This document shows, piece by piece, positions 4,538 through 37,353 of a DNA stretch of 64,000 nucleotides. The notes beneath the pieces were generated by a model. That model had not been told where the DNA came from. It made no database searches and saw nothing but the letters and a program-made list of their open reading frames with translations. Origin of the DNA: an uncultured Gemmatimonadaceae bacterium (GTDB lineage: Bacteria; Gemmatimonadota; Gemmatimonadetes; Gemmatimonadales; Gemmatimonadaceae); NCBI GenBank assembly GCA_963790305.1, contig CAWBOC010000005.1:736001-800000 (forward strand), written 5' to 3'. Each line of letters opens with the position of its first letter. Within the stretch, counting starts at the first letter, position 1. Both the position numbers and the translations under genes were made by a program.

Positions 4538-5607
4538 CTACTCGATGATGACCTTGGTGATGCGGCCGGTGGGGCCGACCGCCCAGCCCGCGCGCCCGCT
4601 CCGCGAGAATCCCACGCTCCAGTACGCGAGCGTATCGAGCCGGTTCCAGGAAGTCGCGTCGTCGGTGGACCAGTCCATTCCCCCTGGCCCCACCGCAATC
4701 AGCGCCGGTGTCCGCGGGACGTACGCAACGCCATACACCGGCCCCGCCATCGCCGGACGTCCCCCCAGCGTCCACGTGCGGCCCCCGTCGCCGCTGACCG
4801 CCACCCAATCGCCGCGCTCGTTAGGTCTTCCGACGGGACCGCCCATGGCGACGCCGTGCAACGTGTCGCGGAAGGCAATCGTCGCCGCACCCGCACCCTC
4901 GCCGGCTGACAGCGGCGTCAAGAACACGCTCCAGCTTCGCCCGTAGTCGGCCGTGTAGAGAATGCGGGACTCCGAGGGTGCATTGCCGGTGGGGATCCAG
5001 GCGCGGCCGCGTGGGCCGGTGATCACGCAGGTGCCGCTGGCGGCGAATGCGCCCTCTCCAGCCCGTGCTGGTGGGAGGGCATCGTCAGGCACGCGTGTCC
5101 AGGTACGCCCGCCGTCGCTCGTCGTCAGAATGTAGAAGCGCCCGTCCACCGCATCGCTGAAGGCGAGCCCGCGACGCGAGTCCCAGAAGTCGAGGCAATC
5201 AAAGAACCCACGGGGCTCCGCGTTGCGGAACTGCAGTGTCCACGACTGACCGCCGTTGCTCGTGTGGTAGATGCGTGAGCGATCACCATCGCCGGCCGCG
5301 AGCAGCCACGCGGTGCGCTCGTCGAGCGCGTAGACGTCGCGAAACTGAAGCGAATCAGCCTCGGGGACGACCGCCGAGCGCCAACTCTCCCCCCGTCGGT
5401 TGTGATCGCATACGTGCCGCGATGCCCACTCACCCACGCCACTCGCGCGGTCGGCGCACTCACCGCCTGAAGGAGCACGGTCGTTCCGCTGCGCTGCGCG
5501 GCGAGCACGGGTGGGCTGGTTGGCGCGCGGTCGAGCTCTGGCCCCGCCGAGCGGAAGCACGCCGCGACAAGGATCAGCGCTGGAATGCGGAGCAGTGTGG
5601 TATTCAC
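4538..5607 (-). CDS. BNR/Asp-box repeat (WD40/YVTN-like) beta-propeller protein; frameshift near 5390
   Basis: Repeated T/S-x-D-G-G-x-T/S-W Asp boxes. N-terminus is in ORF 5125..5643 and C-terminus in ORF 4538..5560; the frames switch in a C homopolymer. Confidence 0.85.
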
Positions 5608-5629
5608 CGTTTGGGAGTCGGGGTTACCT

Positions 5630-6194
5630 GCATCCAGGTTCAAAGTTGGGACGCGGATTGCGCGGATTCAGCGGATGACGCTGATGGATCAGTGAACGAT
5701 TTGCAATCGGCTCGCAATAACTTGGTGATTTGCCATTGCCCGATCTGAGTATCGTCTCGCATGACGAAAATCCAACTGCTTGAGGAACGGCTCACGCGGT
5801 CCGTTATTGGCGCCTTCTACGAGGTGGACAACACTCTTGGTTTTCGGCTTTCTCGAGCACGTCTATATCATGGCTCTCGAGCGCGAGCTACTCGAACGCG
5901 GGCATCGCGTAGCGCGTGAGGTGAGTACCCATGTGACGTACAAGGGACATGTCCTCGCTGTGCAACGAATCGATATGATCGTCGATGAGCGGCTCATCGT
6001 TGAGACGAAAGCGACATTCGAGACTCCGAAGGCAGCTCACCGGCAGCTCCTCAACTATCTCCGGGCGACGAACCTCGAAGTTGGCCTCTTGCTGCATTTT
6101 GGACTGGAGGCGCAATTCCATCGAGTCATTTCTACGAACAAGCGCAGTATTCCGCATGATCCCCTGAATCAGCGTTTCGTTTAAACCTGGATGC
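5630..6194. mobile_element. Candidate mobile element: GxxExxY gene bounded by terminal inverted repeats with 9-nt periodic subterminal arms
   Basis: Left end GCATCCAGGTTCAAA followed by units ACGCGGATT/GCGCGGATT/CAGCGGATG/ACGCTGATG. Right end TTTAAACCTGGATGC matches the left-end reverse complement at 14/15. Confidence 0.7.
5761..6184 (+). CDS. GxxExxY protein (PD-(D/E)XK nuclease-like); one extra T near 5841-5844
   Basis: MTKIQLLEERLTRSVIGAFYEVDNTLG joins FGFLEHVY (the GxxExxY motif). Downstream: RIDMIVDERLIVETKA (D...ExK), QLLNYL and GLLLHFG. Confidence 0.9.
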
Positions 6195-6215
6195 CTTCGG
6201 CTGTCCGGCGGGCGA

Positions 6216-6413
6216 GCATCCAGGTTCAAAGGTGGGACGCGGATTACGCGGATCTAGCGGATCGCGCCGATTGTTCCTGGCGCATTGAGCACTCCTCTAC
6301 AGCCAAAAAAAACAAGCTCTTTGTCTCGCGCGTGGAAAGCTCTCGTCGGCAGGAGTTATTCGCGTAATCAGCTAAATCCGCGAAATCCGTGTCCCAACTT
6401 TGAACCTGGATGC
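6216..6413. mobile_element. Non-coding MITE-like element with the same termini as the GxxExxY element
   Basis: Starts GCATCCAGGTTCAAAGGTGGGACGCGGATTACGCGGAT and ends ATCCGCGAAATCCGTGTCCCAACTTTGAACCTGGATGC; relatively AT-rich core with no credible ORF. Confidence 0.75.
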
Positions 6414-6489: not shown

Positions 6490-6726
6490 CTAATCAGCGC
6501 GCGGGGGACGGGTCTGGCGGTTCACCTCAGCCTCGAGGGTGCGCGCGGCGTTTTGCGCGCGGAGGCTGGCCTCGCGGAGCCGCTCCACGGCCACCGCCAA
6601 TCGCTCGAAGGCGACGCGTGCCCGCAACAGCGAGTCGCGCGCCGACAACAGGTCGGCGACCGTTGTGCGCACGTTCGGCGCAAGGAGGGCGTCTACGTCC
6701 TCGGGACGGAGCGGCTCGGTGGGCAT
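6490..6726 (-). CDS. Small hypothetical coiled-coil protein
   Basis: 78-aa ORF downstream of the ABC operon; helical composition. Confidence 0.55.
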   Translation of the reverse strand: MPTEPLRPEDVDALLAPNVRTTVADLLSARDSLLRARVAFERLAVAVERLREASLRAQNAARTLEAEVNRQTRPPRAD

Positions 6727-9544: not shown

Positions 9545-9650
9545 AGAGGCGCTAGAGGCGCTAAAGGCGCTAGAGGCGCTGAAGACGAAAACCCTTTAGC
9601 GCCTCTAGCGCCTTTAGCGCCTCTAGCGCCTCTCGCGCCTCTCGCGCCTC
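9545..9650. repeat. Palindrome of 9-nt units (AGAGGCGCT x4, inverted TAGCGCCTC-like x6)
   Basis: Read directly from the sequence; ~15-nt spacer; lies between convergent genes. Confidence 0.92.
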
Positions 9651-12727: not shown

Positions 12728-12778
12728 TCTCCCCCGGGGTGTTGACCCCGCGCTGGACCGGTGCACATTCCCCGGGCG

Positions 12779-13688
12779 ATGGAATCCGACACGCTCCCCG
12801 AACCCAGTCCCGCCCCGCAACGCACGCTCGAGCGACTTCGTGTCGCATTCCAGGGAGAATTCGGAGCCTTTGGTGAGGAGGCGATCCACCTTCTCTGGCG
12901 CGGGGCGGCCGAGCCCATTCCGAAAGCGACCTTCGAGGACGTGATGTCGGCCGCGGAATCTCGCGACGTCGACTACGGCATGCTGCCCATCGAGAGCACG
13001 CTCGTCGGCGGCCTCGATGTCGCGTACGATCTCCTCAGTCTGCACGACGGCCTGAGGATCGTGGCTGAGGTCATCGTGCCGGTGCACCTCTGTCTCCTCG
13101 CGGTGCCGGGCGCGACCATCAAGTCACTGCGCACGCTCGCGAGCCATCCGGTGATGCTCGGCCAATGCTCGCATTTTCTCAGCCGCTATAAGCACATCAC
13201 TCCGCAGCCCGCCTGGGACACCGCCGGTGCAGCGCGCGACGTGCGAGACGCCGGCGATCGCACGCGCGCCGCGGCCGGAACGCGGCGGGCCGCCGAGCGG
13301 TTCGAGCTCGCGGTGCTGATGGACCACATCGAGGATCGGCCCGACAGCCAGAATGCGGTTTCTCGCCGTCGCTCGCGATCCGGCGGCGCTCAAGGAGAAC
13401 ATGCCGGTGCGTACGGCGTTGCTCGCGGTCTTTCCACACGAGGCAGGCGCGCTCGTGTCGGCGCTCGGACCCATGGCCGAGGCGAAGTTCAACATCTCGC
13501 ACCTCGCGTCTCGTCCCACTCGCGAGCCGTGGCGCTACCAATTCTTTCTCGAGTTCGAGCACACTGCCGGTGACCCGCGCGTGGACAATGCCTTGGCCGC
13601 CATTCGTCGAGCGACGGATGAGTTTCGATCGCTCGGCACCTACCCGCGGTGGATGAAGCAGGGGGCGGATCGCACGCCGCGGTGGTAG
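12779..13688 (+). CDS. pheA: Prephenate dehydratase with ACT domain; frameshift near 13350
   Basis: VAFQGEFGAFGE, LPIES, SHP..LGQC, (T)RF motif, and ACT region SRP..WRYQFFLE, LGTYP. Confidence 0.9.
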
Positions 13689-16768: not shown

Positions 16769-16860
16769 GAGGTCGTCGAGGATGTCGAGGTGGTCGAGGC
16801 GAGGCACCGACGTTCCCTCGATCACCTCGATGACCTCGACGACCTCGACGACACCTCGAG
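16769..16860. repeat. 9-nt periodic palindrome, GAGGTCGTC family, copy 1
   Basis: (GAGGTNNTC)n, spacer, (GANNACCTC)n between convergent genes. Confidence 0.88.
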
Positions 16861-37206: not shown

Positions 37207-37353
37207 GCAACGGCAACGGCAACAGCTTTCTTAACGCAGAGGTCGCAGAGGATGCAGAGGAGATTCAACTGCTAAGGCTTTTCCAAAAAGCCTTGTGTTG
37301 AAGTTCCTCTGCGTCCTCTGCGTCCTCTGCGTTCAAAAAGCCGTTGCCGTTGC
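37207..37353. repeat. Compound palindrome with GCAACG hexamer and CGCAGAGGA nonamer arms
   Basis: GCAACGGCAACGGCAAC..AACGCAGAGGTCGCAGAGGATGCAGAGG is inverted as CCTCTGCGTCCTCTGCGTCCTCTGCGTT..CCGTTGCCGTTGC; between convergent genes. Confidence 0.92.

Follow-up and report, generated by a model that had tools for sequence, protein, structure and literature searches.

A GxxExxY gene enclosed by inverted repeats, possibly dead, is resident at one site of a Gemmatimonadaceae genus, and a gene-less hairpin joined it later. We present here an analysis of this locus, which lies in a window of 64,000 nucleotides from the 4.3-Mb, 94% complete genome of an uncultured soil bacterium (G000) and is one of ten gene-repeat pairs in that genome. 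Architecture, residence, selection, turnover, association and fold are given below as direct results. A resident gene that stays fixed while hairpins turn over suggests an undescribed partnership of enzyme and repeat, and we infer, at about even odds, that the nuclease-like GxxExxY protein mobilises the hairpins.

The features of the locus are listed in Table 1. The terminal 15-mer occurs exactly at 5630-5644 (+), 6216-6230 (+) and 6399-6413 (-) and with one mismatch at 6180-6194 (-), four matches where 0.03 are expected; the initial annotation had all four positions right but did not mention the mismatch at 6180-6194. As it described, these ends delimit two units 21 bp apart, the second 198 bp long and gene-less, and the arms inside them have a 9-nt period. 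An intact arm consists of four 9-nt units; the right arm of unit 1, already noted as degenerate, is shortened and decayed. Of all pairings of ends, 5630 with 6413, the outer pair, matches best (90% over 52 nt), and relatives free of unit 2 have a cassette whose own right arm matches that of unit 2. Tandem hairpin units with 20- to 38-bp spacers recur in congeners as in the window (L273, L277, L278 and L281). The TANNNT hexamer, a possible leaderless promoter signature, keeps identical spacing to the ATG in 6 of 6 aligned orthologues and in only 18 of 71 metagenome homologues. A sigma-70 scan at the locus found no promoter, and an Rfam search to E 1 gave no match.

Table 1. Coordinates of features at the GxxExxY locus (positions in the window)
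Feature	Position	Strand	Remark
Flanking gene, context	4541-5560	-	Frameshifted at 5388 in the G000 assembly
Terminal 15-mer, left end of gene cassette	5630-5644	+	Exact; shared at the site by G001, G002, G004, G007 and G008
Left arm, four 9-nt units with CGGAT core, facing the gene	5650-5685	+	
TANNNT hexamer, 5 nt upstream of the ATG, possible leaderless promoter	5750-5755	+	Candidate
GxxExxY gene (TIGR04256 / PF13366), frameshifted in the G000 assembly	5761-6184	+	Stop codon within the right 15-mer
T run, one base longer than in orthologues (the frameshift)	5841-5844	+	Real or assembly error
Decayed right arm of unit 1: 15-mer with one mismatch and three units	6150-6194	-	
21-bp spacer between units 1 and 2	6195-6215	.	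8-mer in common with one congener tandem spacer
Unit 2, gene-less polar F1 hairpin: A-type half, then B-like half	6216-6413	.	
Flanking small ORF, context	6490-6726	-	Kept in relatives; marks the site

The gene's TAA (6182-6184) does lie inside the right 15-mer, as first annotated; what that annotation missed is a frameshift of the GxxExxY gene in this assembly. The frame from the ATG at 5761 ends early and the TIGR04256 match (positions 20-114) continues in the next frame, because the run at 5841-5844 holds one T more than in all aligned orthologues (five congeners and three metagenome orthologues). The C-terminal piece scores 87 bits against TIGR04256 (112 bits for the G004 orthologue; cut-off, 35), and the window gene scores 87 bits against PF13366 (cut-off, 22). 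The break falls inside the GxxExxY motif, and the frame is intact in G001, G002, G004, G007 and the metagenome loci L187 to L190. Over 56 kb aligned between G000 and G004, frame-breaking indels number seven in G000, about one per 8 kb, and none in G004; six of the seven are extra bases, and the break at 5388 in the neighbouring gene is missing from a 98% identical contig. A prephenate-dehydratase-like gene at 12761-13573 of the window is apparently split over two frames. No near-identical contig or run spans the break in the GxxExxY gene, and two contigs identical to the window stop short of it, at 5814 and 5826. The sequencing-run search listed no RNA run and reached a best DNA share of 0.20; no excision joint of either unit was seen in reads, only other copies of the F1 hairpin family (see below) mapping across 5675-6275. 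A recently dead gene and an intact one behind a sequencing error seem to us about equally probable. The four intact orthologues give dN/dS ratios of 0.05-0.14, indicating purifying selection. Because dS of the cassette gene is about twice that of the neighbouring permease, allele replacement of the resident gene may have occurred.

The intact G004 orthologue (model pLDDT, 89) models as a Cas4-like PD-(D/E)XK nuclease fold with a conserved D-ExK site, in agreement with the fold initially proposed. Across 99 sequences G27, G29, E32, Y35, D71 and R121 are invariant, and E42, E81, K83, Q95 and Y99 are kept at 90% or more; we take these residues to be a PD-(D/E)XK site and the Cas4/RecB QxxxY motif. 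The best Foldseek match was Cas4 SSO0001 (4ic1; E 3e-4, TM 0.53), followed by MGME1 and phage exonucleases. VIA-align gave Cas4 a Z of 8.2 over 104 residues, and as BpuSI, Cas4 and others tie at Z ~8, the comparison identifies a fold and not a function. Matches to Cas4 profiles were weak, and a sequence search found no solved structure. The protein is like Cas4 (SSO0001, 4ic1) and RecB-like nucleases in its fold and its E...D-ExK...QxxxY pattern; unlike Cas4, it has only ~125-135 residues, the G004 orthologue contains no cysteine and therefore no Fe-S cluster, and no cas genes occur in the neighbourhood read. In the accessible part of PMC3424549 the function of PF13366 (PDDEXK_3) is given as 'Unknown', and in that of PMC8934634 GxxExxY is used as the name of a cas4-like gene.

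Eight congeners were compared at the site; G005 breaks off at a contig end, hence seven are informative, and five of these keep the gene there. The cassette is intact and without unit 2 in G001, G002 and G007; G008 has it without unit 2 and with a broken gene; in G004 an intact gene and unit 2 are fused; all that G006 has is an empty hairpin, an F1 variant first taken for a separate family; and G003 has a single decayed arm. The metagenome contigs L188 and L189 carry the cassette alone, with a right arm that matches the right arm of unit 2 in the window, L187 is fused at a breakpoint different from that of G004, and in L190 the cassette is inverted while its neighbours are unchanged. Six arrangements of the site occur in relatives: the cassette by itself, inverted, with a hairpin or fused; a hairpin without the cassette; and a decayed arm. 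Most simply, an old cassette received unit 2 at its right-hand end in the common ancestor of G000, G004 and L187, after which the junction palindrome was deleted twice. All homologues of at least 74% identity are at this site, and the 92 F1-clade loci are spread over 44 neighbourhoods, or 23 when only the 50 loci that have both flanks are counted. The cassette does move, though infrequently, and unit 1 is not a recent jumper. The initial annotation had raised the reading of unit 1 as an autonomous element, with an empty site at 5629/6414 to be sought in relatives. This reading finds no support: no clean empty site was seen among the congeners and metagenome contigs, and the gene-bearing unit is single-copy and at the same site across the genus. 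In G002 (L027), G007 (L028), G006 (L030) and G001 (L031) the cassette is separated from its left neighbour by a radical SAM gene; G000, G003, G004 and G008 are without this gene, and its loss ends near the left arm.

Unit 2 belongs to a genome-wide family, which we call F1. The proposed search of the genome for the 15-mer shows that empty copies abound and that the gene-bearing unit is single-copy: G000 contains 40 exact 15-mers (53 with at most one mismatch) and 22 paired, gene-less units of 175-225 bp that are 67-95% alike, plus halves and minis, and unit 2 is one of the 22 paired ~198-bp hairpins. It had been presented as an empty sister of unit 1, a relationship that its interior contradicts: this shows no resemblance to unit 1, with a best local score of 18. 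Unit 2 is therefore an F1 member that landed here and not a deleted unit 1. It folds as a single long hairpin (z -9.4 as DNA, -9.8 as RNA). F1 units are polar, 18 of the 22 joining a B-type half to an A- or C-type half, four having one half untyped and none being B-B; they are therefore copied whole. By our own rough gene calls they lie at a median of 34 nt after a stop codon. They show no excess of clustering with other families in G000 (6/22 versus 132/600 random intergenic points). Duplications of the terminal motif occur just outside 4 of 53 ends, versus 0.18 expected, and also in G001, G002, G006 and G007. Two mini elements (G000:C9:684479-684516 and C5:634850-634883) consist of two fused ends and are possible footprints of interior excision, and a 472-bp F1 copy in G002 (L280, on C133) has other periodic hairpins nested in its loop.

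Two 1.47-kb F1 copies contain transposase ORFs, and these, with the terminal inverted repeats, are what would recommend reading unit 2 as a MITE that depends on a DDE transposase, for instance that of the IS inside them. The IS, however, is a 1269-bp element with its own ends and 3-bp duplication that sits in the hairpin loop and is missing from the G004 orthologue of the F1 copy; presumably, from its motifs, it is of the IS3 family. F1 ends have no target-site duplication, as initially noted: direct matches in the 40-nt flanks of the 22 copies average 4.8 nt, versus 5.0 in shuffled sequence. A DDE partner is largely refuted, since the only transposase between F1 ends has ends of its own and is a passenger, and we find this reading scarcely credible. 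Unit 2 does resemble a MITE with an autonomous DDE IS in being short, gene-less, bounded by terminal inverted repeats and copied whole; unlike such a pair, it has neither a target-site duplication nor a DDE partner sharing the ends, the interior is not derived from the gene-bearing unit, and that unit is not multicopy. The two interrupted copies (G000:C12:2440-3911 and C7:4640-6112) share flanks and are probably one locus assembled twice.

Hairpins turn over between relatives. Six of the 12 F1 sites of G004 are common to G000, five are without F1 in G000 and one is unalignable; empty copies thus differ between relatives, which supports the initial annotation in this respect. At one G004 site F1 sits inside a 7-mer hairpin whose G000 counterpart is free of F1. 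A second family, F2, has 16 sites in G004 and G008, of which 13 are scorable: five are shared, five hold a different family in G000, two are nearly empty there and one has an extra gene. These comparisons are at ~85-90% identity, with junctions too diverged to read a mechanism and no clean insertion junction. Four G004 sites (L063, L069, L072 and L075) carry a composite of 7-mer hairpin, short inner hairpin and F1 that looks as if it had spread as one unit. An outer motif with a consensus near CGCAACGAGCC lies ~15 nt outside most F2 ends and remains in hairpin-free alleles (L084, L095), where it is either target or remnant; it is only scattered at F1 ends, and the F1 termini were therefore kept as placed. 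The window holds further hairpins: a gene-less one at 9546-9650 with TAGAGGCGC 9-mer arms, directly after a stop codon, whose word also forms the arms of a four-helix-bundle gene at G000:C9:787730; a GAATGCG hairpin at 2845-2896, straight after the stop codon of an efflux pump gene; a GTCGAG hairpin at 16775-16849; and a member of a third family, F3, at 37232-37334.

Could hairpins change in this way with no dedicated enzyme, by replication slippage, template switching and gene conversion, the gene being a bystander? Departures in F2 arms are paired within copies (204/387 versus 62 shuffled), a co-variation that points to arm-to-arm copying; duplicated ends often come with short microhomology, and the junction palindrome was deleted twice. 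Against such passive drift, F1 polarity means copying of whole units, and gene and repeat are strongly associated (see below). We regard it as very improbable.

The arms might instead act as RNA stems like those of 23S rRNA intervening sequences (IVS), cut by RNase III or ending or stabilising transcripts, with a protein that binds or cuts RNA and with spread as a secondary matter. Several features suit this: hairpins lie close after stop codons and are overrepresented where genes converge (F2, 17/35; F1, 6/22; background, 277/2037), a placement that would suit a role in DNA equally well, unit 2 folds strongly as RNA, and the accessible part of PMC4990558 describes for the Coxiella IVS tandem heptamers, a four-helix-bundle ORF and excision by RNase III. 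On the transcribed strand, however, mismatches show no excess of G-T over A-C (31:30 in F1, 8:17 in F2), the cassette occurs in both orientations at its site, and there is no Rfam match. F1 arms are as alike between copies as within them (0.79 versus 0.80), which means that their sequence, not their pairing, is conserved. Together the mismatch counts, the equal likeness and the two orientations favour reading F1 arms, from sequence, as putative protein-binding sites in DNA rather than RNA, and leave the RNA reading distinctly improbable. With the Coxiella S23p IVS, as far as the accessible part of PMC4990558 describes it, the locus shares a small ORF enclosed by terminal inverted repeats that contain tandem heptamers, and the S23p family is present in the four-helix-bundle cassettes of G000. 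Unlike the IVS, the window locus lies between protein genes, encodes GxxExxY and not S23p, has many gene-less copies and bears no RNA-strand signature.

GxxExxY genes and arm families go together. G000 has four such genes, each beside its own hairpin family, with 22 (F1), 35 (F2), 16 (F3) and 5 (F4) paired units; the F3 gene is truncated upstream by a contig start. CRCRRAK describes most arm units, with a period of 9 or, in some cases, of 8 or 10, and heptamer doublets number 191 genome-wide at period 9 versus 21-34 at periods 7 and 11-15. As the initial annotation anticipated for the flanks of other GxxExxY genes, most have arms: inverted arms occur at 38 of 59 intact loci in relatives and the phylum (2 broken loci omitted; 37/58 without the unpublished G015), versus 2 of 106 shifted controls, and, among 80 metagenome loci, at 53 of the 66 whose flanks were complete, the other 14 being too short, versus 0 of 80 controls. 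Arms also flank the GxxExxY genes of Bacteroides and Sphingomonas plasmid records; in the Fusobacteria and Treponema plasmid records they were below threshold (5/8 records examined). Among 151 genomes of the phylum, in which kin are non-independent, at least five heptamer triplets occur in 27/55 gene-bearing versus 2/96 gene-less genomes, and at least ten in 19 versus 2. Two gene-less genomes with 13 and 16 triplets are exceptions, as are 14 of the 55 gene-bearing genomes, which have none of the pattern. Congeners with an intact gene at the window's site have 38, 28, 21 and 15 F1 ends, and those in which it is broken or gone have 7, 7 and 0; G005, with the site unassembled, has 27, and G000 has the most, 52, despite a gene that reads as broken. 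The protein tree places every labelled GAT-ending locus, six in number, in a single clade (100/96) of 11 rows, 5 of them unlabelled. Within the genus, paralogues form separate groups, each with its own arms, and arm class agrees with protein clade, a match that is partly trivial given the linkage of gene and arms. One paralogue (G001, G003, G004) was at first considered armless, until an empty hairpin was found directly behind it. On Gemmatirosa plasmid 1 (L289) complete hairpins, built on a different unit of 11 nt, stand on either side of a GxxExxY gene. One search returned 6,901 GxxExxY homologues; the gene was found in 8 of 72,556 plasmid records and at two loci in viral contigs, a scan of genome contigs yielded one locus, and the phages searched gave no match.

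The same layout occurs with a second, unrelated fold. G000 carries six four-helix-bundle genes (TIGR02436), each in periodic arms of a different 7- or 9-nt word with gene-less hairpins of its own; both arms are visible in five, and the downstream arm in the sixth. In relatives, inverted arms flank 27 of the 29 best-scoring four-helix-bundle loci, a larger share than for GxxExxY, and 0 of 52 controls. We know of no nuclease fold among four-helix-bundle proteins. With the four GxxExxY genes they make up ten gene-repeat pairs, two folds and ten arm families, and because the layout is common to both kinds of gene it does not by itself make the nuclease the mobiliser. A literature search for TIGR02436 by that name found nothing. 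In the accessible part of PMC4990558 the family is a pentameric ring with no function assigned. A screen of 1,949 predicted small genes for further armed genes gave 10 matches, mostly ordinary genes between two hairpins, and missed most known cassettes, so that it does not argue against further ones.

Ten small genes of two folds with ten arm families in one genome could also mean that the genes for GxxExxY and for four-helix-bundle proteins can stand in for one another, as arm binders or as passengers, and that a shared host or mobile enzyme, unnamed or an integron integrase, moves all families. Families do swap at the same site (5/13 scorable F2 sites), F1 nests inside a 7-mer family, and an integron integrase above the curated cut-off is present and could act in trans (G000:C9:694984-695919, L267; several short ORFs follow). 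An outside mobiliser is nevertheless unlikely in our estimate: GxxExxY keeps residues of catalytic type, and repeat abundance tracks the GxxExxY gene and not clade alone. What we take to be attC cores (RYYYAAC / GTTRRRY) were found at both ends of 0/22 F1, 0/35 F2 and 0/16 F3 units, and no catalogued hairpin lies within ~13 kb before or 29 kb after intI. Neither a Y1 transposase (PF01797) nor a reverse transcriptase was found in the 94% complete G000 genome.

The reading that we prefer, a two-part system like REPIN/RAYT in which the resident enzyme is not an HUH transposase, is in our judgement evenly balanced between right and wrong. Several copies of the Cas4-like protein would bind the heptamer array and cut in or close to the terminal motif, and whole hairpin units would then be copied to new intergenic sites by the repair or replication machinery of the host. 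New units would often enter into or beside an older hairpin, including the cassette's own right arm, which would be how unit 2 arrived, and the gene cassette itself would move only over long times. More tentatively, with doubt outweighing confidence, we propose a distinct class of mobile DNA in which small resident proteins read the arrays of tandem words in hairpin arms and copy the hairpins. A Cas4-like nuclease would serve the 9-nt CRCRRAK families and four-helix-bundle rings the others, and no DDE, HUH, recombinase or reverse transcriptase enzyme would take part. 

The comparison with RAYT/REP made at the outset fits: the gene is single-copy and resident, gene-less inverted doublets, including tandem clusters, occupy extragenic space, and F1 ends are fewer in congeners whose gene is broken or gone. 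In REPIN-RAYT systems a single-copy, vertically kept gene adjoins repeats whose population shrinks on gene loss, according to the accessible parts of PMC3116915 and bioRxiv 10.1101/2021.07.10.451892. Unlike those systems, the window enzyme is PD-(D/E)XK and not HUH/Y1, its arms are direct tandem heptamer arrays with a terminal motif that pair arm to arm and not short palindromes, and its gene is enclosed by inward arms with the stop codon in the right one. On enzyme and arm structure, the window system is therefore no member of REPIN-RAYT. Dispersed intergenic tandem heptamers, GGGAATC in Xanthomonas and GGGGA(C/T)T in Nostoc, are described in the accessible part of PMC4692102, with 70-75 inverted pairs per Xanthomonas genome. 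They differ from the window arms in period (7 versus 9), and no partner gene is proposed for them in that part; the words 'transposase', 'nuclease' and 'four helix' are absent from its main text. No literature linking a GxxExxY gene to these repeats was found in a search of main texts that reached a minority of subscription journals.

GxxExxY / PDDEXK_3 is a large family of unknown function, for which the arms are a candidate substrate; with paralogue-arm pairing as a control of specificity, that function becomes directly testable. A 125-residue nuclease with retargetable word specificity would be of practical interest. Were the proposed class real, ten pairs of this kind would coexist in G000, each using a DNA word of its own and competing with the rest for the same slots after stop codons. 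If GxxExxY drives the hairpins, evolution has reached REPIN-like persistence by way of an enzyme that is no relative of the HUH transposases; heptamer repeats that so far lack an explanation, and the intervening sequences of rRNA, may then be outlying members of a single family.
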